Shown piece by piece: positions 46,921 through 64,000 of a stretch of 64,000 nucleotides of DNA. The notes beneath the pieces are model-generated. The model was given only the letters and a program-made list of their open reading frames with translations, did not search any database and was not told the origin of the DNA. Location: NCBI GenBank assembly GCA_963795165.1, contig CAWCGT010000002.1, forward strand, positions 94,565 to 158,564, written 5' to 3'. The DNA comes from an uncultured Microthrixaceae bacterium (GTDB lineage: Bacteria > Actinomycetota > Acidimicrobiia > Acidimicrobiales > VFJN01). The stretch's first letter is position 1; each line of letters opens with the position of its first letter. A program made the translations under genes and the position numbers.

Positions 46921-47391
46921 ATGAAGCCCACGGGCACCAAGCCGATCGCCAGCAACCGGCAGGCTCGCCGCAACTACGAGATCCTCGACACCATCGAGGC
47001 GGGCATCGTGCTGCGCGGCAGCGAGGTGAAGTCGCTGCGGGAGGCGAAGGTGCAGATCACCGACGCGTTCGCTCGCATCGACGGCAACGAGATCTGGCTC
47101 CACCAGCTCCACATCGCCCCGTGGCTCTACTCCCAAGCGCACACCGGCCACGACCCCGACGCCAAGCGGAAGCTCCTCTTGCACCACCACGAGATCCTGC
47201 GCCTGAAGGCCCGTGTCGACCCGGAGCACCTGTCGCTCATCCCCCTGTCGATCTACTTCAAGGACGGGAAGGCCAAGGTGGAGCTCGGTCTGGCCAAGAG
47301 CCGGCGCACCCACGACAAGCGCCAGGTGATCGCCGAGCGCGACGCCGCACGGGACCTGGCCAGGGCCAACCGGGGCGACAAGACCGAGTGA
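46921..47391 (+). CDS. smpB: SsrA-binding protein
   Basis: NRQARRNY, EAGIVLRGSEVKSLR, RKLLLH, HDKRQ. Confidence 0.97.
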   Translation: MKPTGTKPIASNRQARRNYEILDTIEAGIVLRGSEVKSLREAKVQITDAFARIDGNEIWLHQLHIAPWLYSQAHTGHDPDAKRKLLLHHHEILRLKARVDPEHLSLIPLSIYFKDGKAKVELGLAKSRRTHDKRQVIAERDAARDLARANRGDKTE

Positions 47392-47416
47392 CCACGCTGT
47401 GGGCGCCGCACCGGGC

Positions 47417-47897
47417 TCAGCGCCTCGAACGGCGGCGGCGGACCTCGTCGTCGGCTCCGGGTCCGGGTTCGGCCACCACCTCGTGCGCTCCGGGAGCGCC
47501 GCCGCACTCCCCACAGCGGGTCGTTACCCGCACCGCGCCGCCGCACGACGCGTGCTCGAGAAGGATCGGGGGGCCCTTCGGGGCTGACCAACGATCGCCC
47601 CACTGGGTCAGCGCCATCACGACCACGCCCAGCTCTCGACCCTTCTCGGTGAGGACGTACTCCTGGCCGGTCGCGCTCGTCCACGGCCCGTTGCTCCATC
47701 AGCCCGGCGGCGACGAACCCTTCGAGGCGCTTGGCCAACACGTTCGGCGCGATGCCGAGGCCGCGCTCGAACTCCGAGAAGCGGGTCATGCCAGCGAAGA
47801 CCGCGTTGCGGATGATCAGCAGGCTCCAGCGCTCGCCGACGAGCTCGAGCGCCCTCGCCGCCGAGCAGTTCTCCCGTTCGTACAGGTGGCCGAGCAC
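47417..47897 (-). CDS. HxlR family winged-helix regulator (one frameshift)
   Basis: CSAARALELVGERWSLLIIR, RFSEF, LAKRL, ALTQWGDRW. Confidence 0.9.
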
Positions 47898-47920
47898 CCG
47901 TGCAGTCTACCGCAACCCTA

Positions 47921-47967
47921 CTTGCGTCATGCTAGTTGCTCTTCTACGATCGCTTGCATGACGCAAG
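47921..47967. promoter_or_regulatory. Paired operator (12-bp inverted repeat) in divergent promoter
   Basis: CTTGCGTCATGC(47921-32)-N23-GCATGACGCAAG(47956-67); each site approximates CTTGC-N5-GCAAG; -10-like TACGAT at 47945. Confidence 0.65.
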
Positions 47968-48703
47968 CCCAGCCCGTCCACGACCACGCCACCGCCAGCC
48001 GAGAGGAGTGGCTCGACGCTCGACTCCAGCTGCTCGAGGCGGAGAAGCAGCTGACCCGTCAGAGCGACGACGTCGCCCGCGAGCGACGCCAGCGCTGCCC
48101 TGGGTTCGGGTCGACGAGCCCTACGTCGTTCGACACCGAGCAGGGGGAGGCCACACTCGCTCGACCTGTTCGACGGCCGGTCCCAGCTCATCGTGTACCA
48201 CTTCATGTTCGCTCCGGACTGGGACGAGGGTTGCCCAGCTGCTCGGGAGTCGCCGACGGGTTCGACCAGACCCACCTCCACCTCCAGAACCACGACGTGG
48301 CCTTCACCGCCGTCTCGCGCGCCCCGCTCGACAAGCTGCTCGCCTACCGCGAACGCATGGGGTGGAGCTTTCCCTGGGCGTCGTCGGGGCGGAGCAGCTT
48401 CAACTTCGACTTCAACGTGTCGTTCACGAGCCGAGTCGGTCGCCACGGGACAGCAGTCCTACAACTTCCGGCCGCTCGAGGGCTGGCAGCTCGAGCCCGC
48501 CAACCTGCCCTTCGAGGGACCCGGGCTGAGCGCGTTCGCGCATGCAGGACGGCGACGTCTTTCACACCTACTCGGCCTACGCCCGAGGCCTCGATGCACT
48601 GTGGAACATGTGGCAGTGGCTCGATCGTGCGCCGCTCGGGCGCAACGAGGGGGACCTGTCCTGGTTCCGTCGCCACGACACCTACGGCACCGATGCCTCC
48701 TGA
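47958..48703 (+). CDS. DUF899 thioredoxin-like protein (frameshifted)
   Basis: EEWLDARLQLLEAEK, LFDGRSQLIVYHFMF, GCP(S)CS, VSRAPL, FHTYSAYARG, WFRRHD. Confidence 0.88.
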
Positions 48704-48809
48704 CAGCTCGCCACCGTGCGGACCAGTCAGGTGTGCCGGTCACGGCAGGCCCGGTACCCTGAGACACCCCCGGGAGATCCGGGGGGAGATCCTTGACACA
48801 CCCTTTCCA

Positions 48810-49197
48810 GGGGCTGATCGGTTTCGACGTTGAGACTGCTCGGCGATCCGTGCGACCGGAGTTGCTCAGACTCCTAAAACGGGGCACCCAAACAACTGCC
48901 AACGAGCAGTACGCCCTCGCCGCCTAGTTCACGCTAGGTAGTAGAGAGCATCCGTGACCGGTGACGGCACACGGGGCCTGGCCACTGCAGCCCGGCAACA
49001 GAAGCAGTGGCGGACCGTAGGGAGAGACCACTGACGGCGGGAAAGACCGCTGGCTTCGAGGAAAGACTCGGCGGCGAGCACCCTCGCGTGCTCCTCCGAC
49101 CCGGCGGTGCGCCAGCCGAAGTGGCGTGATCTCGGGAATGGTCGTAGCGCGTACGTCGACCGCTTGGCGGACGAGGGTTCGATTCCCTCCAGCTCCA
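48810..49197 (+). ncRNA. ssrA: tmRNA; tag (A)NEQYALAA*
   Basis: 5' GGGGCTGATCGGTTTCGAC, resume codon GCC at 48898 reading ANEQYALAA-TAG, 3' GAGGGTTCGATTCCCTCCAGCTCCA. Confidence 0.96.
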
Positions 49198-49411
49198 CTC
49201 ACTGACTGACTGCCTGAGGGGGGTTCGCGAAATTGCGGGCACTCCTCCGAAGCTCCAGATCCCCGGTGCTGGTTGAGACGACCTCATTGGTGCGATCGTC
49301 TCCCGGATCGAGTCCGGCACCTCAGATGCGTGCTCCGCCAGGTGGCGGATGTCACGGCAAGGTTCGTCGCTCGGCGCGACGATTGCGCGACGGTTCAATC
49401 GTTGGAGAGTC

Positions 49412-49931
49412 GTGGAAGCGAGCGGGACCCTGCCAGGTGCCAGAGTCGACACGCCGGAACGGTTCGCTGCGTTCTATCGGACGCACCTGCCCGACGTGTA
49501 TGGCTACGTCCTCCGTCTGTGCGCTGGTGACCGGGCACAGGCGGAGGACCTCACTCAGGATGTGTGGCTCGCGCTCGTAGAGGAGCTGCGGCGCGGCCGC
49601 GCTGGAGCGCGCTGACGTCAGATGGCTGATCACCGTCGCACGCTCCCGGTTCATCGATGCAGCTCGACGGGAGCGCCGGCGCCAGTCGAAGCTGGCGCTC
49701 GTCCGTCGGGAGCAGTTCAGCGACGACGATCCCACCAGTGGCGACGTGCTCGATCAGCTTGACCAGCTCCAACCCCTCCACCGGGCCGTGCTGGTGCTCC
49801 GCTACGTGGATGGCTTGTCAGTGCCCGAGGTGGCCGCCGCGATCGGCCGCAAGCTGACTCCGACGAACTCACTCCTCGCGCGCGCTCGCGCCGAGCTGCG
49901 CCGATTGTCTGGAGACGACACCGATGGTTGA
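49412..49931 (+). CDS. ECF RNA polymerase sigma factor (one frameshift)
   Basis: FYRTHLPDVYGYV, AEDLTQDVW, WLITVARSR, VLVLRYVDGLSVPEVA...SLLARAR. Confidence 0.85.
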
Positions 49932-51195
49932 TCCGCCGACCTACCGAGCCGAGCCCGGTCCTGCGTTCGCAGATCGCCTCGAGCGGGTGCTGCTGCAACG
50001 GCTCACCGCCGAGCCGGCGGGAATGAGGTTCAGCCGGGACGTCGTCCGGAGCGATGAGCCAGGCCGCCCCGACGCCGATCTCGACCTTCGAGAGGGAGCC
50101 ACCATCATGCTGGAAACTGAAGACCGCCTCACAGAACAGGGGGCCCCCAGCCGTCGCGCGCGTGGCCGCTGGCTCCTGGCCGCTGCCGCGGTTGCCGTGG
50201 TGGTCGTCGCCTTCGCCGCGGTCGAGCGGAACGGCGACGAGCTCGACGCTACCGATGGCTTCCCGAACCTGACATCGACCTTCGTATCGCCGAGAAACGG
50301 CTTCTCGATCAAGCTCCCCGACGGCGCCGTGGTCACACCGGCCACGCCCGGCGTCGAGGACGGCTTCGACGTCGTGGACACCGGGTTGGCCGCCGTCTTC
50401 AAGGGCATGTCCACAGAGTTCTTGGACGAGGTCATGATCGATGAGGGAGGCAGGACCGTTCAATCAGACGAACGGATCGACGGGTACCTGTCCGACGACG
50501 GCGCCTTCCCGGACGGCTGCGGTGTTCCTCGCAGCCAGCAGCCAGAGATCACCATCGACGGGCAGACGGGCAGGATCGTAGAGTGTCCGAACCGAATCGA
50601 GGCGACCGTCCTCGCCGGCGGGAAGCTCTACGTCTTCGCCCTGTCGCACGACCGCAGTGACGCCAGAGCCCTCTTCGACGCCTTCGTCGCCTCCATCGAC
50701 CTGACCCCGGAGACCGCGGTCCACTTCCCGGCGATGACGACGGCCTTCGTCTCGGCGACCAACGGCTTCTCCTTCAAGTATCTCGCCAGGGGAGGCCTCG
50801 CCCCAGCCACCGAGCTCTGGGATCCCGTCATCGATCCACCCACTGACACCTCCGGCGCGGACGACGGCCCATTCGATGGCGTGGAGACCGGGTACGGCGC
50901 CTACTTCAAGGCCGCGTCGACAGGGATCCCGGACGGGGTCGCGATCGATGCATGGGTTGACGAGCACGTCTCACCTGGCGGCTGCAGTGTGCCTCGCAGC
51001 CAGCAGGAAGAGATCAGCATCGATGGCCAGGCGGGCAGGATCGCGGAGTGCTCGCACCGAGTCGACGCGACGGTCGTCGCCGGCGGGCGCCTCTACTTCT
51101 TCATCCTGCTCCACAACCGCAGTGACGCCAGGGCCTTCTTCGACGCCTGGGTCGCCACAATCGACCTGACACCGGAGACCGCAGCGGAGCCCTAG
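49924..51195 (+). CDS. Single-pass membrane protein with two repeated extracytoplasmic domains (putative anti-sigma factor)
   Basis: Overlaps sigma stop; RWLLAAAAVAVVVV TM; two ~150-aa repeats ending IDLTPETA. Confidence 0.75.
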   Translation: MVDPPTYRAEPGPAFADRLERVLLQRLTAEPAGMRFSRDVVRSDEPGRPDADLDLREGATIMLETEDRLTEQGAPSRRARGRWLLAAAAVAVVVVAFAAVERNGDELDATDGFPNLTSTFVSPRNGFSIKLPDGAVVTPATPGVEDGFDVVDTGLAAVFKGMSTEFLDEVMIDEGGRTVQSDERIDGYLSDDGAFPDGCGVPRSQQPEITIDGQTGRIVECPNRIEATVLAGGKLYVFALSHDRSDARALFDAFVASIDLTPETAVHFPAMTTAFVSATNGFSFKYLARGGLAPATELWDPVIDPPTDTSGADDGPFDGVETGYGAYFKAASTGIPDGVAIDAWVDEHVSPGGCSVPRSQQEEISIDGQAGRIAECSHRVDATVVAGGRLYFFILLHNRSDARAFFDAWVATIDLTPETAAEP

Positions 51196-51315
51196 ACGCG
51201 GCCGAGCAGGACCGCGAGGAGTGGAACCGTCGACCTTGTGGCCCACGTCCATGACACCGACCACACCGAATGGCCTCGCCCCACTGAACCACGAGCCATC
51301 AGAAAAGGAGCCCCA

Positions 51316-51822
51316 ATGAACAACAGGTTGGCAGCCCCGGTCGCCAGAGCAGCGACAGCCCTCCTCCTGCTCGGAGCGTGCAGCGACGACGGAAGAACGA
51401 CCAACGACGATGGTCCGACGACCCTCGCCAAGGGCGATGTGAGGTTCGTCGGAAGCACAGGCCTTGGTGGCCAGACGATGGACATCACCGCCGTGGAACA
51501 GGACGGCCAGGTGACCGGCGAGGCCCGTTTCAGCTTCGGGCTCATCCTCGACCTGCAGTGTGCGGACACTGACACCGACGATCTCGTGATCCTCGGCGGC
51601 GTGGCGACCGCGGAAGACGGTGACTCCGCCACCGCAGGCGACCGGGTGGCGGTGATCATCCGGGAAGGTGACCCCGACAGCGCACTCGTCTGGTACGAGC
51701 TTCCGCTGCCGGAGGGCGAGGTGGCCGCAGGATCCTGCGGAGAGTTCGTTGGCTCCCTTCCCCACGATCGATTCACCGGGCTTGCCGACATCGCCGAAGG
51801 TGACGACATCGAGACCGGCTGA
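51316..51822 (+). CDS. Putative lipoprotein
   Basis: AAGGAG RBS, lipobox LLGAC. Confidence 0.75.
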   Translation: MNNRLAAPVARAATALLLLGACSDDGRTTNDDGPTTLAKGDVRFVGSTGLGGQTMDITAVEQDGQVTGEARFSFGLILDLQCADTDTDDLVILGGVATAEDGDSATAGDRVAVIIREGDPDSALVWYELPLPEGEVAAGSCGEFVGSLPHDRFTGLADIAEGDDIETG

Positions 51823-52109
51823 AGGGCCACCCTCCGCTGCCTGAACGTGTGCATGCAGGACCTCGGTGCAGAGAGACGGGCACAGCCATGCGGGCCGACA
51901 CGGTCCGCGCTCAGTGGGCGTTGAGCTGGTGCCGGGTGTCCACTCCGGGCGGGAACCACCAGTGTGATGAGACCCACCGTCAACCTGTGACCGCCCCACC
52001 CAGGGACGCAGCGTCGACCCATGTCAGCCCGGCTTCGCGAACCTCCCACGCCCGCATGCAGGCAGAGGTGACGAAGTGAGGGACACTGGGCGAGGAGACG
52101 GAGGCGCCC

Positions 52110-52505
52110 ATGTCTGGAATCGCAGTCATCACCGAAGCGTGCATCGACACCAAAGACCGGGCGTGCGTCGACGTCTGCCCCGTGCAATGCATCTACGAGT
52201 TCGATCCCGCCAAGAACGTGCTCTTCTCCGAAGAGGAGGCCGGTAGCGGCGTCACGGAGAACACGCACCAGCCCAATCCCGATGCGATCGCCATCTTTGG
52301 TGACACGACGCTCTACGTGAACATGGACGAGTGCACGTCCTGCACCGCCTGCTATCAGCCCGACGTCTGCCCGGTCGGGGCGATCTACACGGAGGAGTCC
52401 GTCCCCGACGGGCAGACGAAGACTACGTACAACAAGGAAGACCCGAACAAGGGCCACGACCACACGTTCTTCATCCAGCACAGCCGGGATGTCTTCGCCG
52501 ACTGA
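52110..52505 (+). CDS. Ferredoxin, FdxA-like with insertion
   Basis: CIDTKDRACVDVCPVQCIY and CTSCTACYQPDVCPVGAIY; GGAGG RBS. Confidence 0.9.
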   Translation: MSGIAVITEACIDTKDRACVDVCPVQCIYEFDPAKNVLFSEEEAGSGVTENTHQPNPDAIAIFGDTTLYVNMDECTSCTACYQPDVCPVGAIYTEESVPDGQTKTTYNKEDPNKGHDHTFFIQHSRDVFAD

Positions 52506-52533
52506 TCGCAGCGGCATGTCTGCCGATGTGTGA

Positions 52534-52572
52534 CGCGAGCCGCAGGCTTCCGGTCGGAATGCGACGCCCATC
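52534..52572 (+). repeat. 39-bp intergenic direct repeat, copy 1
   Basis: CGCGAGCCGCAGGCTTCCGGTCGGAATGCGACGCCCATC; 36/39 identical to 53559-53597. Confidence 0.85.
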
Positions 52573-52607
52573 CGTATCGCATGTCCGGCAATCGGAGCGG
52601 GGCGCGC

Positions 52608-52934
52608 CTACGGCGTAGGGCCACCCAACAGGTGGCGGCACGTGTCCGCAACCTCGGTGGCGTGAGGCAAGACCTGGATCTGCTCGACCGTGATCGTCTC
52701 GGGGTCATGCGACAGCCACACCTTCTGGTCATCTTCTGACAGCAGGTCCTCGGCGGCAGACGCAGTACACGCCAGAGCTTCGGGCGTCACGTTGAATCCG
52801 GCGGCCGCTTCCAGCCAAGCCCCTATGTCGGCCGGCTCGTTCTTCTTGTCGGAACAGCCAGTGGCGATCATCACACCGACAAGGAGGCTCAGGGAGACCC
52901 GACTGAACACAGTTCGCACGGCACGAGTCTGCAC
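52608..52934 (-). CDS. Putative lipoprotein
   Basis: Hydrophobic signal with lipobox ATGC; start uncertain. Confidence 0.65.
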   Translation of the reverse strand: MQTRAVRTVFSRVSLSLLVGVMIATGCSDKKNEPADIGAWLEAAAGFNVTPEALACTASAAEDLLSEDDQKVWLSHDPETITVEQIQVLPHATEVADTCRHLLGGPTP

Positions 52935-53114
52935 TCTGGACGAGCGCGGTCTTCTCAGACTGTGTTGAGCACACTGAGGTGCCGTTATGGGACGTGGGAA
53001 TACCTGCCGGAGTGCATCCGTCAGTCACCCATTGCGCGACGAAGTCGTTCGGTGAGGCTGCAGGATCGCATTGGGCCCACACGGGGTCCTCCACTGGTGC
53101 CTAGCCTTCGACAG

Positions 53115-53486
53115 ATGCATCGTTCTCGCATCGGATTGATTCTCATCGACCACCCCGAGGCCGACTGGGCCGCCGGTCTGGCCTTTTGGGCCGGCGTGCA
53201 AGGGGTAGAGCCCACGGGGGAGGCGACGTACCGGTCCCTGGGCACAGCTGGCGGCGTGGCAGTCGAATCCCAGCGCCTGGGAGACGGGACACCCGCCCGC
53301 ATCCACCTCGACATCGAGACCGACGACATCGGAGCAGAGGTGGCCCGGGTTACGGCGCTGGGGGCAACCGTCCTGGCGACGCACGACAGCTACACAATCC
53401 TCCAGGATCCCGCGGGCCTCGTGTTCTGTGTCGTGGGCATCCAGACCGGCGACGACTTCGCCCGCCACGCGAGGACCTGGGACTGA
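53115..53486 (+). CDS. VOC/glyoxalase family protein
   Basis: AFWAGV, RIHLDIETDD, QDPAGLVFCVV. Confidence 0.9.
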   Translation: MHRSRIGLILIDHPEADWAAGLAFWAGVQGVEPTGEATYRSLGTAGGVAVESQRLGDGTPARIHLDIETDDIGAEVARVTALGATVLATHDSYTILQDPAGLVFCVVGIQTGDDFARHARTWD

Positions 53487-53558
53487 GACGTAGCGCCACC
53501 GGTCGACGTTCCCTCTGATGGCACACGTCCGGGCGTGACCCATTACTGCCGTGGTGCC

Positions 53559-53597
53559 CGCGATCCGCAGGCTTCCGGTCGGAGTGCGACGCCCGTC
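53559..53597 (+). repeat. 39-bp intergenic direct repeat, copy 2
   Basis: CGCGATCCGCAGGCTTCCGGTCGGAGTGCGACGCCCGTC. Confidence 0.85.
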
Positions 53598-53599
53598 GC

Positions 53600-53872
53600 G
53601 TGGAGCATGCGGGGTTTCGGAGCAGCGGGCCGTACTCGTGCCAAGTGGCACCAGCCTCCTCTGGCTCGTCAAGCATCTGACGAACGCGGAGCTGCTGTGG
53701 GTCGGGAGGCGGTTCGCTGAAAGGGACACTCGAGCAGCCCTGCCGGGACGCCGGAGCTGAGACCATGGTCGACCTCCGCTGGGTGCTCACGCATCTTCTT
53801 GAGGAGACCGCTCGTCATGCAGGGCATGCGGACATCCTGCGCGAGCTCCTGGATGGATCGACGGGTAGGTGA
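53600..53872 (+). pseudogene. DinB/DUF664 family remnant (5'-truncated, internally deleted)
   Basis: [21 protein letters not shown], then in another frame [32 protein letters not shown]. Confidence 0.8.
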
Positions 53873-53939
53873 ACGATCCATCCCCGGGTGCTGCCCTGTT
53901 TCGGTGCCTGCCCAGTGGCTCCGCCGGGGCCGTGACATC

Positions 53940-54527
53940 ATGATCGTCGTGCTCGAGGACCGGCAGGGTGAACAGCTTCCGCAGACCGGTCGACGCCGCT
54001 GGCTCTGGGCGGCCGCCGCCGTCATCGTCGTCGTGGGAGCGGTGGTCCTCTTCTGGTTCCAGCCGCACAAGCTCTTCATCGACGACCGCGTAGAGGAGTC
54101 GATCCCCACCGTCACGTCGCCGCCCACGAGCGGCCCTGGCGTGGACCCCGCCCCGTCCACCCCCACCACCGGGGCCGTGCTCGAGCCGGTTGAGCTGTCC
54201 CGGGGCGAGTTCGTGTCGAGGGACCACGGCACCAGCGGCGTCGCCCGCGTGCTCGAGCTCGCCGACGGACGCCGGATCCTTCGTCTCGAGGGCCTCGACA
54301 CCGACAACGGTCCCGATCTGTACGTGTACCTCACCGCCAGCCCCGCCGACGGCGACGAGGGCGCCTTCGATGACGACCACCTCGACCTCGGCCGCCTGAA
54401 GGGGAACCAGGGCGACCAGAACTACGACATCCCGTCCAGCGCCGATCTGGATGCGTTCCCCACCGTCGTCATCTGGTGCGACCGCTTCGACTCCGCCTTC
54501 GGGGCGGCCGACCTCCTGGCGGCGTAG
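53940..54527 (+). CDS. DM13 domain membrane-anchored protein
   Basis: WFQPHKLFID, DNGPDLYVYL, LGRLKGNQGDQNY, VIWCDRF. Confidence 0.9.
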   Translation: MIVVLEDRQGEQLPQTGRRRWLWAAAAVIVVVGAVVLFWFQPHKLFIDDRVEESIPTVTSPPTSGPGVDPAPSTPTTGAVLEPVELSRGEFVSRDHGTSGVARVLELADGRRILRLEGLDTDNGPDLYVYLTASPADGDEGAFDDDHLDLGRLKGNQGDQNYDIPSSADLDAFPTVVIWCDRFDSAFGAADLLAA

Positions 54528-54567
54528 CGACGGAGCTGGGCACAGACCCCGCTATCGTTGGGGGCAC

Positions 54568-54653
54568 CACATCAAGAGCGACCGGAGGGGCCTGGCCCTG
54601 TGATGGTCCCGCAACCGGCCGTTGGGCACGGTGCGAACGCCAGGTTCGATGAG
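54568..54653 (+). promoter_or_regulatory. SAM riboswitch (SAM-I superfamily, P4-less)
   Basis: ATCAAGAG...GGAGGG.CCTGGCCC.GTGA...GCAACC...GGTGC.AA.GCCAGG...GATG; P1 CATC/GATG; pseudoknot CCTGGC(54591-96)/GCCAGG(54639-44). Confidence 0.85.
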
Positions 54654-54662
54654 GAGGACCCG

Positions 54663-55025
54663 GTGCCCAACCACCGTCGTGCTGCCCAGCCCCCTGCCCG
54701 GTCGCGCGAGCAGGCCACGTCCCTGTGGACCGTCGACAAGCTCCGAGCCGTCCGGTCGGGCGGCTGGACCTCCGCTCGAGCGTCCTTCGAGGCCGCCCGA
54801 AGGGTGGCTCTCGCCATTGCGGATGCACCGACCCACCCCGGCCACGAGCCGGTCTTCGTCGGGATGGGAGGCGACGCGGAACACGGGCGCGTGCTCGCCG
54901 TCGACTGCGCGTGCGGACGGCAGTGGTACGGCCCGACGCACGATGTCCAGCTGGCGTGGATCGACCACCGACAGGACGTCCAGCGCGGGCACAGAGCCCC
55001 GGAGGACCCGGCCCCCACCTCGTGA
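54663..55025 (+). CDS. Hypothetical 120-aa protein with HxxH...CxC...H motif, downstream of SAM riboswitch
   Basis: GAGGAGG RBS at 54651-57, GTG at 54663; THPGHEP...VDCACGRQW...WIDH. Confidence 0.7.
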   Translation: MPNHRRAAQPPARSREQATSLWTVDKLRAVRSGGWTSARASFEAARRVALAIADAPTHPGHEPVFVGMGGDAEHGRVLAVDCACGRQWYGPTHDVQLAWIDHRQDVQRGHRAPEDPAPTS

Positions 55026-55134
55026 GCCCGTAGGGAGTGCTCGGGACACGTAGGCGGCCCCGTCGCTAGTCTGGGCCGACTGGGACTTCGGGTGCCCTGG
55101 GGTGGCCCGGACGGGACAGATCGGTAGGCGACCG

Positions 55135-55587
55135 ATGACGACAACGACGTTGGGACGACCGCCGGCCGATGCCCGCCCGGACGCACCGCCAGCTCCGGCG
55201 CGGCGCCGGGGCGACCGACGGGGCCACGAGCGAACGGTCCTCCGCGCCCGGCGGGAGGACCGGCTGACCTCGAGCTACGTGTGGCTGCGGGCGCGTCGGC
55301 GATGGTTGGCGGCCATCGTGATCGTGACGTCGGTGCTCGACCTCGTGCTCACGCAGACCATCCTCGCCCACGCGCAGGCCCTTCACGGGGTGGAGGCAGC
55401 CGAGGCCAACCCGATGATGTCCGACCTCGTGATGACCTGGTGGGCGTGGCCCATCAGAGTGGGGATCCCCATGCTGATCGTGGCGCGGGGGCTGCGGCTC
55501 GGTCGTTACGCCGTGCTGGCGGCCGCCACCGGGGTGTATGGCGCAGTCGTGATCTGGAACACCTACACGCTCTGGGTGGTGAGCTGA
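55135..55587 (+). CDS. DUF5658-like membrane protein
   Basis: LDLVLT...EANPMM, three hydrophobic segments ending VIWN. Confidence 0.7.
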   Translation: MTTTTLGRPPADARPDAPPAPARRRGDRRGHERTVLRARREDRLTSSYVWLRARRRWLAAIVIVTSVLDLVLTQTILAHAQALHGVEAAEANPMMSDLVMTWWAWPIRVGIPMLIVARGLRLGRYAVLAAATGVYGAVVIWNTYTLWVVS

Positions 55588-55604
55588 CCCCTACGGCTCG
55601 GGGC

Positions 55605-57203
55605 TCACCCGGGGGCCAGACCGCTCGATCGGCGCTTGTTGGCGTACATGGCCGAGTCGGCCTGGCTGAGGAGGGCCTCGGCGTCGTAGACCCCGGGCGT
55701 CGACGTGGCGACCCCCACGCTGGCGTGCAGCGACAGCTGCCGGGAGCCGAAGGCGACATCCCCGTTGACAGCCTCCCGAAAGCGGTGGGCCAGAGCGGCG
55801 GCGGCGAACTCCTCAGCGCCGCGACGGCAGATCACCACGAACTCGTCGCCGCCCATCCGACCCACGACATCCTCGGCTCGCGCCGCCCCCCGCAAGCGGG
55901 TGGCGGCCACCCGGAGCAGCTCGTCTCCCGCTGCGTGGCCGTGCTGGTCGTTGACGGACTTGAAGCGATCGAGGTCGAGGTAGACGACCGCCACCGCCGC
56001 TGACTCGACCAAGGCCCGCTCCAGCGCCACCACCGTGGCCGACCGGTTGAGGCACCCCGACAGCTCGTCGTGGCTGGCTCGGTGCTCCAGCTCCTTGCGC
56101 AGTCGAGTGGGGTCGGTCACGTCGAGCGCGCACACGATGATCCCGTCGGGCTCGCCGTCGACGGCGTCCATGAGACGGAAGGTGAGCTCGCACCGGCGAT
56201 CTTCGTCCCCTCGTCGCACGCCCACCTCGAGGTGGTCAGGCACGCCTCGCAGGGCGGCGTCGACGGCACGGAGCACCCGCTGACGATCAGGCCGCGCCAG
56301 GTTCTGGGCCAGGTCGGCGATGTGCTTCACCGGGCCCAGGAGGGCAGCCAGGCGCTCGTTCGAGTACGCCACCTCCCGATCGGCCCGGATGTGGCAGACG
56401 CCGATGGGGAGCATGTCGGCCAGGCGCTCCAGCTGGCGCTCGCGGTCCCGGATGGCATCGAGCCGCGCTACCTCGTCGGAGATGTCGACCATCTCCGTCA
56501 GCACGCAATCGTGCTCCGGGTCGTCGAGCCGGCTCTCGTTGCTCACCTCCACCCACCGGTAGCGACCGTCGGCCTGTCGGTGCCGCAGCTTCAGTCGGCT
56601 GCTGCCAGCCCCGGCCCGCATCTCCAGCCAGCTGTCGATCGCTTGGGGGATGTCATCGGGGTGGACGAAGTCGAGGGCTCGCCGACCCACGATGTCCTCG
56701 GGGCGCCAGCCCAAGAGGGCGGTCGTGGCGGCATCGATCTCGAGGATCACCGCGGCCGCGTCCTTGCGGAGGTGAGCGACGGTCCCAGGACGGGTCGCCA
56801 GCTCTGCTGCCCAGGCCACCACCCGGTCGGGGTCGTCGTGCACCATGGTGATCACGTGGACGTCGTGGTCCATCCGCTCGTCGAAGAAGGCGATCGTGGA
56901 GTGGTTGGTGGGGTCGGCCCGGAGCCGCACCTCGAGCTCCACCACTGGCTCCTCTTGGGCGCGCGTCCAGGCGTCGATGAGCCGGAGCTGATCTTCGGCC
57001 ACCACCAGCTCGAGCCCGGAGGGCCCGGAGAAGGGCCGGCAGTCGTGGCCCTCCAGGGCGGGAGGAACGGGCACGAGACGCCCATCGTGGCCCAAGGCGG
57101 CCACCAGCACCTCGGGATGGCCCGTCAGGCAAGCCACCAGGGCAGGACTGAGCCCTGATGGGTGCATCGTCTCCACTGCTTCGCCCTGGGCTGCCGGCGT
57201 CAC
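55605..57203 (-). CDS. PAS-domain diguanylate cyclase
   Basis: FVHPDD PAS motif, HDELSGCLNR, DLDRFKSVNDQHGHAAGD, RAED I-site, GRMGGDEF. Confidence 0.93.
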   Translation of the reverse strand: MTPAAQGEAVETMHPSGLSPALVACLTGHPEVLVAALGHDGRLVPVPPALEGHDCRPFSGPSGLELVVAEDQLRLIDAWTRAQEEPVVELEVRLRADPTNHSTIAFFDERMDHDVHVITMVHDDPDRVVAWAAELATRPGTVAHLRKDAAAVILEIDAATTALLGWRPEDIVGRRALDFVHPDDIPQAIDSWLEMRAGAGSSRLKLRHRQADGRYRWVEVSNESRLDDPEHDCVLTEMVDISDEVARLDAIRDRERQLERLADMLPIGVCHIRADREVAYSNERLAALLGPVKHIADLAQNLARPDRQRVLRAVDAALRGVPDHLEVGVRRGDEDRRCELTFRLMDAVDGEPDGIIVCALDVTDPTRLRKELEHRASHDELSGCLNRSATVVALERALVESAAVAVVYLDLDRFKSVNDQHGHAAGDELLRVAATRLRGAARAEDVVGRMGGDEFVVICRRGAEEFAAAALAHRFREAVNGDVAFGSRQLSLHASVGVATSTPGVYDAEALLSQADSAMYANKRRSSGLAPG

Positions 57204-57334
57204 GAGGTCCCTCCCGGTTTCGTGCGTCTGTCATGAGCATCGACGGTTGGAACGCGCCCGTGTGGGCCATTTCTGCACGTCCGATCGGGCTACTGGCGTC
57301 CTAGTCACCCCTCACCGCGCCCTACCGTGGCGAC

Positions 57335-57829
57335 GTGGCCACCACCCCCGCCCCCATCTTTCGGCACCTGGACGACCCGGAGGTGCCGTGGCAGGAGGTC
57401 AAGCGGCAGCGCAACGCCGACGGCACCACCTCCTCGGTGTGGGAGAAGTGGTTCGCCTTCAGCCCTGACCCCCAGTACCTGTCCCTCTACGCCCGGTACG
57501 ACCCCGGGATGATCGTCCGGCGCCACGGCCACAACAGCCCCCACGTGGTGTACGTGATCGCCGGGTCGATCTGGTGCGACGATCGGCGCTGCGAGGCCGG
57601 CACCCACATCGAGCTCCCCCAGGGGGCGGCGTTCGGACCGTTCCGGGCCGGACCCGACGGTGTGACGATGTTCGAGGTGATGTTGGGCGACCCGCGCTCC
57701 TGGGGCGACCGACCCGAGGCTGTGGCGGCCCTTCGCGCCGAGCACAAGGTCACCGAGCTGCCGGACCCGGAGATCGACCTGCCCGCCTGGCTAGAGGACC
57801 AGCGGTCGCGGTGGGAGGTGGAGCCGTGA
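57335..57829 (+). CDS. Cupin-fold protein
   Basis: RHGHNSPHVVYVIAGSI, FGPFRAGPDG. Confidence 0.7.
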   Translation: MATTPAPIFRHLDDPEVPWQEVKRQRNADGTTSSVWEKWFAFSPDPQYLSLYARYDPGMIVRRHGHNSPHVVYVIAGSIWCDDRRCEAGTHIELPQGAAFGPFRAGPDGVTMFEVMLGDPRSWGDRPEAVAALRAEHKVTELPDPEIDLPAWLEDQRSRWEVEP

Positions 57830-58488
57830 CCGAGAACCTCGCCATCCCGGCCGCCACGGTGGTGCTGGTTCGCGACGGCCACGAGAGCCTCGAGGTGCTG
57901 ATGTTGCACAGGGTGTCCAAGGTGGCCTTCGGCGGGATGTGGGTGTTCCCGGGTGGTCGGGTCGACGACGGCGACCGTCTCGACGACGACGAGGTGGCCT
58001 GCGCCCGACGGGCCGCGGCGCGCGAGGCGCGGGAGGAGTGCGGTCTCGGCGTCGACCCTGACGAGCTGGTGGGCTTCTCCCACTGGGTGCCTCCGGCCAT
58101 CACCCCCCGCCGCTACTCCACCTGGTTCTTCCTCGCCCGAGCCGGTGCGGGCGAGGTGGTGGTGGACGGGGGGGAGATCCACGAGCACGAGTGGCTGGCC
58201 GCCCGGGAGGTGCTGGCCCGGCGCGACCGAGGCGAGGTGGACCTGGCCCCGCCCACCTGGGTGACGCTCCACGACCTGGCGGTCCACGACGACGTCGACG
58301 CCGCCCTCGGTGCCGCCCGCTCGCGCGTTCCGCTCCCCCGCTACGAGACCCGCTGGGTGGAGGTGGACGGCGGGGCGGTGGCCATGTGGGCAGGCGACGC
58401 CGGGTACGAGCACGCCGACCACACCATCCCGGGGTCCCGCCACCGGCTGTGGATGCTCGGGGACGGGTGGCGACTGGAGCGAACCTGA
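57826..58488 (+). CDS. NUDIX hydrolase
   Basis: VFPGGRVD...AAAREAREECG, RRYSTWFF. Confidence 0.9.
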   Translation: MTENLAIPAATVVLVRDGHESLEVLMLHRVSKVAFGGMWVFPGGRVDDGDRLDDDEVACARRAAAREAREECGLGVDPDELVGFSHWVPPAITPRRYSTWFFLARAGAGEVVVDGGEIHEHEWLAAREVLARRDRGEVDLAPPTWVTLHDLAVHDDVDAALGAARSRVPLPRYETRWVEVDGGAVAMWAGDAGYEHADHTIPGSRHRLWMLGDGWRLERT

Positions 58489-58491
58489 CCG

Positions 58492-59289
58492 TCAGGGGCG
58501 GGCCCGGTCCACCCAACGGTCGATCAAGGTGCGGGCGATGCTCATGCCCGGGGGGATCAGGGGCAGGTCGTCCGGTCGGAACCACTGGGCGTCGACGATC
58601 TCCGACTCGTCGATGACGATGTCGCCGCTCCCCCAGGTGGCTTCGAAGCCCACCATCAACGAGTGGGGGAAGGGCCAGGGCTGGCTGGCCACGTAGCGCA
58701 CGTCGGCCAGCTCCACGCCCACCTCTTCGCGAACCTCGCGGTGCACGGCGTCCTCCATCGTCTCGCCTGGCTCCACGAATCCGGCCACGCAGCTGTACAT
58801 GGGCACCGGGAAGGTCCGGCCCCGGGCCAGCAGCGCCTCGTCGTCGCGCTCGATCAGGGTGATCACCGCCGGCGCCAGCCGGGGGAACGCCACGAGCCCG
58901 CACACGGCGCAGCGGCGTGCTCGCTCCCCCGGAGCAGGATCGGTGGGGTTGCCGCAGCGCCCGCAGAAGCGGGTGGTGCGGGCCCACTCCACCAGCTGCA
59001 CGGCCCGTCCAGCCAGGGTCCACCGCAGGTCGTCGACGCTGCCGTAGAGCCCCATCAGCGGGACCAAGCCCTCGAGGGCGACGTCGGGGACGCCGTCGCC
59101 GTCCAGGTCGATGGCCCAGCAGGCCACCCCGTCGAGCAGACCGAGGACCTGTGCCTCAGCCCCCGGCGCCACGTCCTCGGGGTGCTCGTCGAGCAGCCGG
59201 ACCGCCCCGTCCCGCACCACCACGGTGATGGCCCCGGACCAGTCGTCAGGCAGCTCCAGCACCGGGACGAAGCGGGCAGGTCGGTTCAC
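58492..59289 (-). CDS. nudC: NAD(+) diphosphatase NudC
   Basis: FCGRCG, FPRLAPAVI, AGFVEPGE, SQPWPFPHSLM. Confidence 0.95.
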   Translation of the reverse strand: MNRPARFVPVLELPDDWSGAITVVVRDGAVRLLDEHPEDVAPGAEAQVLGLLDGVACWAIDLDGDGVPDVALEGLVPLMGLYGSVDDLRWTLAGRAVQLVEWARTTRFCGRCGNPTDPAPGERARRCAVCGLVAFPRLAPAVITLIERDDEALLARGRTFPVPMYSCVAGFVEPGETMEDAVHREVREEVGVELADVRYVASQPWPFPHSLMVGFEATWGSGDIVIDESEIVDAQWFRPDDLPLIPPGMSIARTLIDRWVDRARP

Positions 59290-60209
59290 GTCAGCACCCC
59301 TCCAGGTTCCACCAGGTCGGTGGCATCTTGTCCGGACCGGACCACCATCACCACACCCACGGCGATGAGGAGCCCGGCTGGCCAAGCCCCGGCCGGCGGC
59401 GTCTCACCGAACGCCACCCGGGCGATGAGGGTCGCCCCCAGGATCTCGAAGAGGATGGCCACCGAGACGGCGGTCGGGCTCAGGCTGCGAAGGACCAGGT
59501 TCACCAGGGTGTGACCCAGGAGCTGCGCCCCTACGACCAGCCCGCCGATGGCCAACCAGGTGTCGCCGTCGTAGCCAGCCAAGGGCTGCCCCGATGCCAC
59601 GCACAGGGCCAGGAGCAGCACGGCCGCAGTCGTGTAGCAGCTGAGGGCGTAGCCCACCGTCGACACCTGCCGGCGCACGTCGGCCCCCACCGTCACGTAG
59701 GCGGCGGCGAAGACCCCGCCGATCATCGCCAGCAGGTCACCGAAGAGCGCCCGCCCGGAGATGGAGAGGTCGACGCCGGTCAGCACCAGCGTCCCGGCCA
59801 GGGCCAGGGTGATCCCCGCCCAGGTGCCTCGCGCGATCCGCTCGCCCCGGTGGCGGGCGATGAGGGCCGCCCACACCGGTTGCGTGGCCACCAAGGCGAC
59901 CGATGACGCCACCGAGGTGAAGGAGAGGCTGGGCACCCACGTGGCGAAGTGGGCAGCCAGCAGCGCGCCGGCGAGGCGCGACCGCCGTCGGTCCTCGGGC
60001 GAACGGCTCGCCCACCCGGTCCGCTCCGAGCGGCGGACCATGAGCCACAGGGCGAGGACCGGCAAGGCGAGGGCGTTGCGCCAGAAGGCGATGGCCAGCG
60101 TCGGCGCGTCGGCTCCGGCGATCAACGGGGCGGACGTCGACACGGCCGTCACCGCCACCGCGAGCAGGAGCAGGTCCCCGACCGGGGGACGGTGGGGGGC
60201 CACGGCCAC
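59286..60209 (-). CDS. DMT/EamA family transporter
   Basis: About ten hydrophobic segments; AFWR, TSVASS, QLLGHT. Confidence 0.9.
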   Translation of the reverse strand: MAVAPHRPPVGDLLLLAVAVTAVSTSAPLIAGADAPTLAIAFWRNALALPVLALWLMVRRSERTGWASRSPEDRRRSRLAGALLAAHFATWVPSLSFTSVASSVALVATQPVWAALIARHRGERIARGTWAGITLALAGTLVLTGVDLSISGRALFGDLLAMIGGVFAAAYVTVGADVRRQVSTVGYALSCYTTAAVLLLALCVASGQPLAGYDGDTWLAIGGLVVGAQLLGHTLVNLVLRSLSPTAVSVAILFEILGATLIARVAFGETPPAGAWPAGLLIAVGVVMVVRSGQDATDLVEPGGVLT

Positions 60210-60270
60210 GACAGTAGGGTCGCACGTCAGAGCGGCGATCCAGGGGGACCCGAACGTGCCACCGGCCAGC

Positions 60271-61155
60271 GTGAGCGACGAGGTGCGGGAGGGCGCCCGA
60301 CTCCTGGCCCGCGTGATCGAGCCGCTGGTAGGGCAGGTGTACTTCTCGCCCGAGTGCCACGACCGCTACACCGCCTTGGGCTTCGCCTCCAGCCCTGGAG
60401 CCACCTCGGCCGGCGTGGCCCTCCCGGACGGCCCGGCCTACTTCACCAGCCGAGGTTCAGCCCTCGGCCAGGTCCCCGGCGAGGTGGTGTCGGCCGCCTT
60501 CGCCGTGTTCAACCCAGCGGTGGTGGTGCCCGCCGTCGACCATGGCTGGAGCCTCACCGACGCCTCCACCGTCGCCGCCGAGCGGCTGGCCGGAGCGATG
60601 GAGCAGCTGGAGCGCATCCTCGGCCCCGAGCCCGATGGGACCCGCCGGGCCAACGAGCTCCTGCAGAGGGCCATCGACCCCTTGCCGCACGCCGGGCGGG
60701 CGCTCTTCGCCGGCACCCTGGCCCAGCCCCTCCCGGGCACCCCCCTCGGCGACCTGTTCCGGCTGGGCGACCGGTTGCGAGAGCACCGGGGCGACTCCCA
60801 CACCGCAGCCTGGCTGGCCGCCGGCCTCGACGCCCCGCAGATCGGGCTCCTCACAGAAGCCTGGTGGGGCATGCCCTCCCGCAGCTACGTCCGCACCCGG
60901 GCCTGGAGCGACGCCCAGCTCGACGACGCCACTGCGGCACTCGAGGCGGTGGGGTGGTGGGCCGACGGCTCCCTCACCCAGGTCGGTCGTGAGGCCCGCG
61001 AGTCCATCGAGCTGGCCACCGACGCGCAGATGCAGCCCGCCATCCAGGCGCTGGGGCCCGACCTCACCGAGCTCACCGGCCTCTTGGCGCCGTGGGCCCG
61101 CGCCGTGATGGACGCCCAGGGCTACCCGCAGAGCCCGCTGGCCCTTCGCCTCTGA
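60271..61155 (+). CDS. SCO6745-family protein (second paralogue)
   Basis: QVYFSPE, YFTSRGSALG, FAVFNP, LREHRGDSH, TRAWS. Confidence 0.85.
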   Translation: MSDEVREGARLLARVIEPLVGQVYFSPECHDRYTALGFASSPGATSAGVALPDGPAYFTSRGSALGQVPGEVVSAAFAVFNPAVVVPAVDHGWSLTDASTVAAERLAGAMEQLERILGPEPDGTRRANELLQRAIDPLPHAGRALFAGTLAQPLPGTPLGDLFRLGDRLREHRGDSHTAAWLAAGLDAPQIGLLTEAWWGMPSRSYVRTRAWSDAQLDDATAALEAVGWWADGSLTQVGREARESIELATDAQMQPAIQALGPDLTELTGLLAPWARAVMDAQGYPQSPLALRL

Positions 61156-61202
61156 CCGGCCCGGCCGGCCCCAAAATGGGCCAAAAGGCCCATGCCGGGC
61201 CC

Positions 61203-61229
61203 CTCAAGGGCCTCGGGACGAGGGCCGAT
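61203..61229 (+). promoter_or_regulatory. FliA/WhiG (sigma-28)-type promoter
   Basis: CTCA(AG)-N17-GCCGAT, 38 nt upstream of the Flp pilin start. Confidence 0.55.
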
Positions 61230-61267
61230 CACCCCAGGGACGGCCCACAACCGATCTGAGGTTCGAG

Positions 61268-61456
61268 ATGGCACTGGCGCTTCACGTACTGCAGACCTGG
61301 TTCGACGCGCGCCGTTCCGCGGAGCGCGGCGCCACCGTCGTGGAGTACGCCATGCTGCTGGCCATGCTCGCCATCGTCTGCCTCGTGGCCGTCAACCTCA
61401 TCGGGGCCCCCGTGAGCACGGGCCTCTCCAACGGAGGCAACGGCTTCCGGCCGTAA
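61268..61456 (+). CDS. Flp family type IVc major pilin
   Basis: ERG|ATVVEYAMLLAMLAIV Flp motif, 62 aa. Confidence 0.92.
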   Translation: MALALHVLQTWFDARRSAERGATVVEYAMLLAMLAIVCLVAVNLIGAPVSTGLSNGGNGFRP

Positions 61457-61489
61457 TGCTGGTCGCCCCTCTTCGGGGCTCCGGGGCTC

Positions 61490-62392
61490 CTAGACGTCCA
61501 GGAAGCGGCTTACGGCGACGGCGGAGCCGATGGCGCCGATGATGACGGCGACGGCCACCACCAGCAGGTTGGTGAAGATGAGGTTGCCGTCGGTCACCTC
61601 GAAGCCCTGGAAGATCGGCAGGACCTTGTCCTGCGAGAGCTCGTCGATGAAGGGGCGGATCACAAAGGTCATCGAGCCCACCGCTACGGCCGCCCCCATC
61701 AGGGTCTGGATGATCCCCTCCACGATGAACGGCACCCGGATGAACCAGTTGGTGGCGCCTACCAGCTTCATCACCTCGATCTCCCGGCGCCGGGCGAACA
61801 TCGCCACCCGGATGGTGTTGAGGATGAGCATGAGGGCAGCCACCAGCAGCAGGACCGCTGCCAGCAGGAAGCGGACACCGATCTTGTTGAACGTCTCCTG
61901 GATCCGCTTCACCACCTCGAACGCGAAGACCACGTCGTAGACGCCGGGCTTGGCGGCGAACTGGTCGCCCAGGGCCTGGACCACGTCGGGGTCCTGCACC
62001 TTCGGCGCGATGCGGAAGGACGGAGGCAGGATCTCCGGCGACACCGTCTCGACCAGCTGGGGTGAGTCACCGAAGAGGCGCTTGAACTCCTCGTAGGTCT
62101 CGTCCTGGTCGACGTAGCTGATGCCGTCGTCCTTGACGTCCGGGTTGGCCTCGAGGTCGCGGCGGATGGAGTCCTGCTGCTCCTGCGAGGACCCGGGCTG
62201 GAGGTAGATGATGAACTCGATCCCGCCCTTGAAGCGGTCGTTGGCGTTGTTGACGCCCTGGTTCAGCATCACGGCCGACCCGAAGAGGGTGAGCGACACC
62301 ACCACGGTGAGGATCGACGCCACCGTGAGGGTGATGTTGCGAGTGAGGTTGGTCGCGGTCTCCCGCGCGACGTAGTCGAGCTTGATGGCCAT
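61490..62392 (-). CDS. ftsX: Cell division permease FtsX
   Basis: ILNTIRVAMFARRREIEVMKLVGATNWFIRVPF. Confidence 0.96.
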   Translation of the reverse strand: MAIKLDYVARETATNLTRNITLTVASILTVVVSLTLFGSAVMLNQGVNNANDRFKGGIEFIIYLQPGSSQEQQDSIRRDLEANPDVKDDGISYVDQDETYEEFKRLFGDSPQLVETVSPEILPPSFRIAPKVQDPDVVQALGDQFAAKPGVYDVVFAFEVVKRIQETFNKIGVRFLLAAVLLLVAALMLILNTIRVAMFARRREIEVMKLVGATNWFIRVPFIVEGIIQTLMGAAVAVGSMTFVIRPFIDELSQDKVLPIFQGFEVTDGNLIFTNLLVVAVAVIIGAIGSAVAVSRFLDV

Positions 62393-62406
62393 TGATCAGG
62401 TGGGGG

Positions 62407-63085
<679 letters not shown>

Positions 63086-63159
63086 GGGCGGAGCGAGGGT
63101 ACCAGTGCCCTCAACGGAGTTCGCGGCACTCCGGCGGACACCGGAACATTGCGATCACG

Positions 63160-64000
63160 TTACGAGGTGGCGGTGGCCCGACGCCATTGCAGGTAGGCCT
63201 CCATGAACGGATCGAGGTCTCCGTCGAGCACGCCCTGCACGTTCCCAGCCTCGTGCTCGGTCCGAAGGTCCTTCACCATCTGGTACGGCTGCATCACGTA
63301 GCTGCGGATCTGGCTGCCGAACCCCACCCGCTGCTGCTCGCCCCGGATGCCGGCCAGCTCGTCCTCTCGCTTCTGGCGCTCCAGATCGGCCAGACGCGCC
63401 TTGAGCATCGCCATGGCCCGGTCGCGGTTCTGGAACTGGGAGCGCTCCACCTGGCACGACACCACGATCCCGGTGGGGAGGTGGGTGAGCCGCACCGCCG
63501 ACGACGTCTTGTTGATGTGCTGACCGCCGGCCCCCGAGGCGCGGAACACGTCCATCTTGATGTCGGCGTCGTCCACCTCCACCTGCACCTCGTCCTCGTG
63601 GAGGACGGGCACGACGTCGAGGGCAGCGAAGGCCGTCTGACGCTTGCCCTGGGCGTTGAAGGGGCTCATGCGCACCAGTCGGTGCACTCCCCGCTCGGCC
63701 TGGAGGTAGCCGTAGGCGTAGCGACCCTTGACCAGGAACTCCACCGACGAGAGACCCGCCTCCGATCCGGGTGTGGAGCCCTCCTCCTCCACCTCGAAGC
63801 CGGCGACCCTCGGCCCACCGGACGTACATCCGGTAGAGCATCTCCGCCCAGTCCTGTGCGTCGGCCCCACCTTCGCCCGCCTGGATCGTGCAGAGGGCGT
63901 CGCGCTCGTCGTGCTCGCCAGAGAACATCGAGCGGAGCTCGAGGGCTCGCAGCTCTCGGTCGAGCGAGCCGAGGGCGGCGTCGATCTCCGGCTCCTGGGT
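63160..64000 (-). CDS. prfB: Peptide chain release factor 2 (5'-truncated by window, frameshift near 63810)
   Basis: [31 protein letters not shown]. Confidence 0.96.

Follow-up and report, generated by a model that had tools for sequence, protein, structure and literature searches.

SAM-I riboswitches are the textbook example of a riboswitch bound to one pathway, and they mostly gate methionine, cysteine, or S-adenosylmethionine (SAM) genes. The stretch of DNA analyzed here, hereafter the window, comprises 64,000 nucleotides from an uncultured Microthrixaceae bacterium (G000:C2:94565-158564, where G, C, and L numbers are our designations for genomes, contigs, and loci), whose assembly contains 3.55 Mb in 2 contigs with 71% G+C. 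It holds a compact aptamer of the SAM-I clan that has no P4 helix and stands directly before an orphan open reading frame (ORF) of 120 codons, which we call ORF120. We consider it reasonably probable that this element is a working riboswitch of translational OFF design that gates a lineage-specific, orphan accessory cargo ORF.

Excerpts of PMC12714719 describe an Actinomycetota group of SAM aptamers in which P4 is very short or absent and, citing Trausch 2014 and Heppell 2011, state that SAM aptamers without P4 can work, at lower affinity. The missing P4 is compatible with membership in the Rfam SAM family (RF00162) because it falls within this described natural variation, and the P4-less form is an already described variant rather than a new one. 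SAM-IV aptamers, according to part of PMC6890682, also do without a P4 of the SAM-I type.

The window aptamer has the SAM-I (RF00162) core of P1, P2, and P3, with an internal loop in P2 and a pseudoknot that joins the P2 loop to J3/4, as well as the core motifs AUCAAGAG, GCAACC, and GGUGC. It differs from SAM-I in gating an orphan ORF rather than a methionine, cysteine, or SAM gene, and in apparently acting via the ribosome-binding site, with no terminator found. SAM-IV (RF00634) and SAM-I/IV (RF01725) belong to the same clan, have the same ligand core, are common in Actinobacteria, and are often translational. At 54566-54655 both models score below RF00162 and were removed as clan overlaps. 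When all 129 candidates of an own-genome search with RF01725 were scored, the only match was C1:161027-161148 and the window locus was not matched, while the RF00634 search gave no match at E <= 0.001 among the 150 of 2120 candidates scored. Unlike SAM-I/IV, the window aptamer retains an internal loop in P2 as well as the first pseudoknot. There also seems to be no room for a conserved P5/PK-2 of the SAM-IV kind, because the sequence 3' of P1 reads as coding and is not conserved among relatives. The RF01725 match on the other contig (45.3 bits) is a SAM-I/IV riboswitch upstream of a MetX-like gene whose coding sequence is broken into three frames (G000:C1:161027-162412, L002).

Identification and covariation of the aptamer

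A covariance-model search with RF00162 matches positions 54566-54655 of the forward strand with 54.0 bits, above the curated cut-off of 44.4 (E = 1e-9 over the whole window), and this is the sole match to the family in the 3.55-Mb genome. The elements of the locus, all on the forward strand, are as follows.

54553-54558, forward strand: -10-like hexamer TATCGT (TANNNT), 7 nt 5' of the aptamer (sequence)
54566-54655, forward strand: SAM-I-clan aptamer without P4 (RF00162 match and covariation on 19 sequences)
54566-54573 (ACCACAUC) with 54648-54655 (GAUGAGGA), forward strand: P1 (sequence, Rfam alignment)
54571-54578, forward strand: core motif AUCAAGAG (sequence)
54578-54583 with 54605-54609, forward strand: P2a, with internal loop (Rfam alignment)
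54587-54589 with 54596-54598, forward strand: P2b (Rfam alignment)
54591-54595, forward strand: pseudoknot 5' strand, CCUGG in the P2 loop, pairing with 54640-54644
54610-54620 with 54625-54635, forward strand: P3, GCAACC/GGUGC (Rfam alignment)
54640-54644, forward strand: pseudoknot 3' strand, CCAGG in J3/4, pairing with 54591-54595
54651-54657, forward strand: Shine-Dalgarno (SD) sequence GAGGAGG, overlapping the P1 3' strand (sequence)
54663-55025, forward strand: ORF120, GTG start, 120 codons and a stop; orphan

The original prediction had named TATCGT, AUCAAGAG, P3, the pseudoknot, P1, GAGGAGG, and a motif in the ORF, and all of these were located in the sequence. Its assignment of the RNA to a SAM-I-type aptamer without P4 agrees with the covariance-model score, with the covariation of P1, P2, P3, and the pseudoknot, and with the Rfam alignment, where 2 nt take the place of the model's 18-nt P4 segment. 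P4 is likewise missing in 19 of the 19 compact aptamers aligned (86-95 nt, from the window's own genome and 18 relatives).

Pairing in these 19 sequences was counted over P1, P2a, P2b, P3, and the pseudoknot, which together give 586 cells in 31 pairs. Paired combinations occupy 91.3% of the cells, and both sides vary in 16 of the 31 pairs. Values this high occur in 0 of 500 shuffles, and slid controls pair at 30-40%. The paired fraction is 98.9% in P2a, 100% in P2b, 93.1% in P3, and 76.3% in P1, with changes on both sides in half of the helix pairs (13/26 in P1, P2, and P3). The five pseudoknot pairs are formed in 98.9% of cells, and three of them vary on both sides, including U-A to G-C and C-G to U-A. 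Every column that is invariant across the alignment is retained in the window aptamer. By model score and compensatory change, this RNA is a SAM-I-clan aptamer.

Elsewhere in the same order, P4-less aptamers precede genes for a product with PALP and a NinF-type zinc ribbon (threonine-synthase-like) and for an MTHFR product (Pfam), and another precedes a gene that reads by eye as an O-acetylhomoserine sulfhydrylase. Because P4-less aptamers stand before methionine-pathway genes in the order, we infer that the aptamer type senses SAM and that the window copy would bind it.

Free-energy folding of 54564-54680 gave a z-score of 0.08 and drew a hairpin (54639-54646/54655-54662) with much of the ribosome-binding site in a loop. 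This alternative was set aside, being drawn from one sequence with no sign of conservation.

Expression platform

The original prediction read the locus as a translational OFF switch in which the P1 3' strand runs into GAGGAGG. In the Rfam alignment, the P1 pairs C54570-G54651, C54568-G54653, and C54567-G54654 place three SD G residues in the helix, and the outer P1 pairs that use SD G residues form in 11-15 of the 19 relatives. The GTG at 54663 is 8 nt 3' of the RF00162 match, a spacing that recurs among relatives: in 24 of 28 loci, the window locus included, the first start codon opening at least 30 codons follows the match by 6-11 nt. Start codons at this distance make translational OFF control the most plausible reading, and together with the overlap of P1 and the SD sequence, the comparison leaves the predicted design well supported. 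No terminator-like site was found in 54300-55800.

A scan for consensus sigma-70 promoters found none. A TANNNT hexamer starts 11-15 nt before the aptamer in 15 of the 15 cassettes of unknown cargo examined, and TATCGT is the hexamer at this place in the window. The transcription start would probably lie a few bases 3' of TATCGT (54553-54558), so that the RNA would begin at P1. When SAM is bound, P1 would be stabilized and its GAUGAGGA strand would hold the three SD G residues in the helix, so that the ribosome would have no access to GTG 54663 (the OFF state). At low SAM, P1 would open and the 120-codon ORF would be translated.

Sister aptamers and their cargo

RF00162 is matched in 26 of 61 genomes, the window's own included. 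Among order-level relatives the aptamer mostly stands before methionine genes. Eleven of the 29 other genomes of the window's genus carry it, in front of small ORFs of no assigned family. Counted together with G038 and G042, which come from two other families of the order, these cargo ORFs fall into four families (A, with about 230 aa in 4 genomes; B, with about 140 aa in 3; C, Cys-rich with 200-250 aa, in 2; and D, with about 140 aa in 3), with two singletons and ORF120 besides. None of the cargo families matches a Pfam family above the cut-off, and searches of PHROGs, NCBIfam, and PADLOC returned 0 families.

The aptamers of G024, G012, G013, and G029 are 88-93% identical to the window copy, and the similarity stops at the aptamer edges. 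They stand before cargo of family B in G024 and G012, of family D in G013, and before a singleton in G029. Because aptamers this similar are followed by differing cargo, the cargo appears to have been swapped behind a conserved switch, and the same aptamer lineage gates at least five unrelated ORFs. Across the order, besides methionine genes, the aptamer type gates four or more unrelated families of small proteins. The most probable identity of ORF120 is that of an accessory cargo gene, young or evolving fast, of the same kind as the unrelated small ORFs behind its sister aptamers in the genus.

ORF120 was compared with each cargo family. Its PGHE and THD motifs suggested by eye a place in family D, which was rejected: a hidden Markov model (HMM) of 20 family D sequences gives 0.1 bits in hmmsearch, where the 95th percentile of 1000 shuffled ORF120 sequences is 3.2 bits, and hhalign gives 0.1%. 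For families A, B, and C the hhalign probability is at most 0.4%. A tblastn search of 20 cargo and neighbor proteins against all frames of 54600-55650 had a best E of 0.022. The own genome has no match to families A, B, C, or D, a result that falls short of showing their absence because the assembly is incomplete.

Family D carries the motif CxxY-xx-GHxxHxIQ, then NHDPxRL, then PCP (L049-L067 loci). Of 401 genomes sampled across the order, 19 have it, one of which (G248) is flagged as unpublished. In 8 of the 19 an RF00162 match exceeding the cut-off stands immediately before the gene, and in a ninth the score is 38 bits. The association of one cargo family with the aptamer persists across several families of the order. 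Its structure model has a mean predicted local distance difference test (pLDDT) score of 77.3 and a small OB-like barrel core, for which the best structural matches are weak (Foldseek E 0.05, VIA-align Z 5.5). Viral contigs contain no relative of family D or family B.

Coding evidence for ORF120

ORF120 carries the motifs H58xxH61-x20-C82xC84 and W99xxH102. The claim that it resembles nothing known withstood a broad set of searches. Pfam, PHROGs, NCBIfam, and PADLOC assign it 0 families, a Pfam search of the six frames of the locus found no family at E up to 1, a sequence search of the PDB found nothing better than E 0.11, and viral contigs contain no relative. The best Protein Atlas score of 0.79 is a lead at most. 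ORF120 is therefore an orphan, without a family and without a homologue in two very large protein libraries or 60 related genomes; its translation and function are putative.

An open frame is by itself uninformative at this locus, where in 71% G+C DNA five of the six frames stay open past 100 codons. The signals of coding point both ways. The G+C content of ORF120 by codon position is 0.76/0.595/0.843, and in the ORF120 frame the third position is highest in six of six 120-nt windows starting at 54620-54920. In a codon log-odds model, trained on the own genome with 485 long ORFs, ORF120 scores 0.096 per codon. The other five frames score lower (-0.09 to -0.58), and only 2.3% of 1365 off-frame ORFs exceed ORF120. 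The nearby glyoxalase-like gene, which has Pfam support, scores 0.08.

Several results weigh against a gene of the proposed kind. ORF120 finds itself only among 5.8 billion protein clusters (36 candidates scored), and phmmer against 1.84 billion representatives returns ORF120 itself and two repeat-like matches only. A six-frame search of 60 related genomes gives only weak matches with E of about 1e-3; of those in G017, G027, G040, and the own genome, the G017 and own-genome matches are out of the apparent gene frame and the other two are short, and all were set aside. Compared with 485 windows taken from long genes, ORF120 ranks only at the 4th percentile in codon score, and its composition is high in Ala and Arg and low in Leu. 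The recognition value given by a protein language model is 2181, where 91 of 100 proteins of known families reach 2300, and the single-sequence AlphaFold model (pLDDT 51.8) is too poor for a structure search. The frame as read may also be inexact because the assembly, with 58.7% completeness in 2 contigs, carries indel errors. On balance, ORF120 has a little better than an even chance of being a real, translated gene.

These points bear on the possibility that the aptamer is intact and ORF120 is not a functional gene, so that the locus would be a decaying or newly seeded cassette from which cargo and promoter have been lost. Complete orphanhood, the five open frames, a borderline codon score, low language-model recognition, and low fold confidence would all fit such a cassette, as would the comparison with sister aptamers, which gate conserved families and in G013 and G029 keep a damage-type promoter (described below), the window copy having neither. 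Yet the aptamer keeps all invariant columns, the ribosome-binding site, and the 8-nt spacing to the start, and the third-position G+C signal runs along the ORF while no other frame scores better. We regard this non-coding explanation as somewhat unlikely.

The assembly itself raises the question of whether ORF120 is a known gene or a sister cargo that frameshifts have scrambled. Indel errors are evident because the MetX-like gene is split over three frames, which fits the 58.7% completeness in only 2 contigs. Against such scrambling, no Pfam family appears in the six frames at E up to 1, the cargo proteins reach a best E of 0.022, and the third-position G+C signal keeps to a single frame throughout ORF120, so that the chance of a scrambled gene seems very remote. 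The preferred reading continues to be that of an orphan cargo ORF behind a conserved switch.

Neighboring genes

ORF120 is flanked by a DM13 gene and a DUF5658-like gene, and GGDEF-PAS, cupin, and NUDIX genes are found farther out. The Pfam matches of the neighbors include no toxin-antitoxin, defense, or mobile genes and no methionine or cysteine genes. The G+C content at ORF120 (0.71-0.725) is typical.

55102-55587, forward strand: DUF5658-like membrane-protein gene (Pfam DUF5658 at 22.7 bits, cut-off 25.2)

The original prediction suggested that this downstream gene might be co-regulated, and a stronger form of the idea makes the DUF5658-like membrane protein (55102-55587) the real target and ORF120 a leader ORF that couples the SAM level to it. 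The two are on the same strand and 76 nt apart, and no terminator-like site was found between them or elsewhere in 54300-55800. However, the homologue in G027 (54% identity) is in another gene context, flanked by what we take, from their translations, to be a HAD-like hydrolase gene and a hemB-like gene, and neither G027 nor G019 has an RF00162 match. The gap contains a TANNNT hexamer, TAGTCT (55067-55072, noted by eye), that could be a promoter of its own, and the aptamers of relatives gate the ORF that starts right after them. Co-regulation is thus unsupported by the G027 comparison and is only a possibility, and we think it quite unlikely that the membrane protein is the true target of a leader ORF. 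In G027 only residues 47-158 of the DUF5658-like protein are conserved, and its true start is possibly later.

The gene content of the region also bears on the proposal that ORF120 belongs to sulfur or methyl metabolism, as a new metal-binding component or a small regulator. This would suit the established preference of SAM-I switches for such genes, and the HxxH-x20-CxC motif is present. But the neighbors are DM13, GGDEF-PAS, cupin, and NUDIX genes rather than methionine or cysteine genes, the MetX-like gene of this genome has its own SAM-I/IV switch elsewhere, and the sister cassettes carry unrelated, unassigned proteins in accessory regions. A metabolic role of this kind, which the original prediction favored, receives no support, the ORF having no homologue at all, and is highly doubtful; nor is ORF120 likely to be a methionine or SAM enzyme.

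A genomic island at the tmRNA gene (48810-49200) was examined and rejected. No repeat of the tmRNA 3' end occurs in 48700-64000, no integrase is found among 14 window ORFs scanned, and the G+C of ORF120 is typical.

Damage-type promoters of the sister cassettes

Twelve of 23 aptamers with unknown cargo are preceded by the motif GTC[AG][CG]-N10-TANNNT, which ends 5-9 nt before the aptamer and has a chance rate of 1.4e-4 per 45-nt window. None of 13 methionine-gene aptamers has this motif, and 5 of the 13 have TTGAC-N17-19-nAnnnT instead. Within the own genome the motif has the consensus TGTCACACCCCCTGCGTAGGGT and often lies 7 nt before an ATG, a position that suggests leaderless transcripts. 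Of the 23 downstream ORFs, 20 were scanned, and their products match RecA, UvrB, Lhr, a RadA-like ATPase, a DNA methylase, and six DUF222 proteins. Examples of loci with the motif are G000:C1:980324-981388 (L106), C1:747817-749829 (L107), and C1:1613593-1618134 (L102). The own genome also encodes three WYL-domain proteins.

By its consensus and downstream genes, the TGTCACACCCCCTGCGTAGGGT set looks like a damage regulon of the PafBC/RecA-NDp type in Acidimicrobiales. The motif of the sister cassettes stands before recA, uvrB, and lhr in the own genome, which fits the content of the mycobacterial regulon. Parts of PMC6789036, PMC8223512, and PMC3381160 place the 13E12 family in the actinobacterial PafBC/RecA-NDp damage regulon.

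The ORF120 copy differs in having no such motif. The strict pattern GTC[AG][CG]-N10-TANNNT is absent upstream of its aptamer, where TATCGT alone is present, and the best score of this region against the damage-type promoter matrix of the own genome is -11.2, compared with 18.8-36.3 for 16 true sites. Among the four sister aptamers that are 88-93% identical to the window copy, G013 and G029 keep the damage-type promoter.

At L067 two SAM aptamers, 1399-1483 on the forward strand and 2415-2503 on the reverse strand, lie 1 kb apart and face each other, and the second has a damage-type promoter motif.

Genomic surroundings of the sister cassettes

Toxin-antitoxin, restriction or defense, or mobile domains occur within about 7 kb in 11 of 13 loci of relatives. 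They comprise PIN, MazE, VapB, TacA, PemK, AbiEii, large serine recombinase, ISL3 transposase, Uma2, GmrSD_C, NERD helicase, Schlafen-type helicase, OLD-TOPRIM, and DUF222 domains, and PADLOC identifies a type IV restriction enzyme (837 bits) and PsyrT (773 bits) at sister loci. Thirteen control regions picked by a fixed rule, namely bases 3001-17000 of contig 7 in the 12 genomes and one stretch of the own genome (122 proteins, 127 kb), have 0 such domains at E 1e-6, with longer contigs and a stricter threshold than in the case scans. Raw PADLOC counts do not discriminate because 12 of the 122 control proteins match generic models (ATPase, cyclase, polymerase, methyltransferase, HTH, and glycosidase-like) with 50-118 bits.

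Two loci illustrate the arrangement of neighboring genes. At L042 (3-3728, reverse strand) the aptamer, a family A gene, a DUF1905 gene, an unassigned ORF of 202 aa, and a PsyrT-like RecQ-type helicase gene follow one another in that order and are co-directional. At L047 (264-1854, forward strand) an ADP-ribosylglycohydrolase gene comes immediately after the aptamer and its family D gene, and an HTH gene and an AbiEii-like gene are next in line. The G+C content around the aptamer is 0.67-0.68 in 6 of 14 fetched loci (L035, L036, L037, L038, L044, and L046), 0.70-0.73 in seven others, and 0.48 in the low-G+C genome G042; the low values at six loci hint that some cassettes are in acquired DNA.

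These surroundings allow a broader reading, in which ORF120 would be a member of a hitherto undescribed set of Acidimicrobiales accessory cassettes whose P4-less SAM switch gates swappable effectors, half of them behind a PafBC-type promoter that makes an AND gate of DNA damage and low SAM. The coincidence of damage and low SAM would signal a phage that destroys SAM, or failed self-methylation with cuts by the cell's own restriction enzymes, and the cargo would be defense, abortive-infection, or restriction-alleviation effectors. The window copy would have lost the damage promoter, or never had it, and would carry a novel effector. The ORF120 copy has neither a damage-type promoter nor defense-rich surroundings, and this fuller account of it is an unlikely one. 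We continue to favor the narrower reading of a SAM switch gating an orphan cargo ORF.

Other features of the window

The smpB and tmRNA genes (46921-49200) lie about 5 kb upstream of the aptamer. An ORF of 423 aa without a Pfam match (49924-51195) has an internal 224-nt repeat with 81% identity (50494-51182). A 39-nt direct repeat with 92% identity (52534-52572 and 53559-53597), of which the genome has two copies only, sits 30-75 nt past the stop codons of ferredoxin-like and glyoxalase-like genes and corresponds to no Rfam family at the gathering score. Positions 53801-53886 of the window (86 nt, the 5' end of the DM13 ORF) are 94% identical to G000:C1:1257235-1257320 on the minus strand, and the DM13 ORF possibly begins later than its listed TTG.

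Implications

In the literature searched, we found no paper that joins a SAM riboswitch with the subject of anti-phage defense or SAM lyases, and no riboswitch behind a PafBC-type damage promoter or tied to toxin-antitoxin systems. SAM switches with swappable cargo, often behind a damage-type promoter and in regions rich in toxin-antitoxin and defense genes, look new, and the window copy shows only part of this wider cassette pattern. Taken alone, ORF120 is of smaller value, as an orphan that can be tested under a defined condition of low SAM. If the cargo proteins are true effectors, then the cassettes would constitute a simple natural two-input gate that links methyl-donor status to genome stress, and they would yield new small proteins with inducing conditions known in advance.
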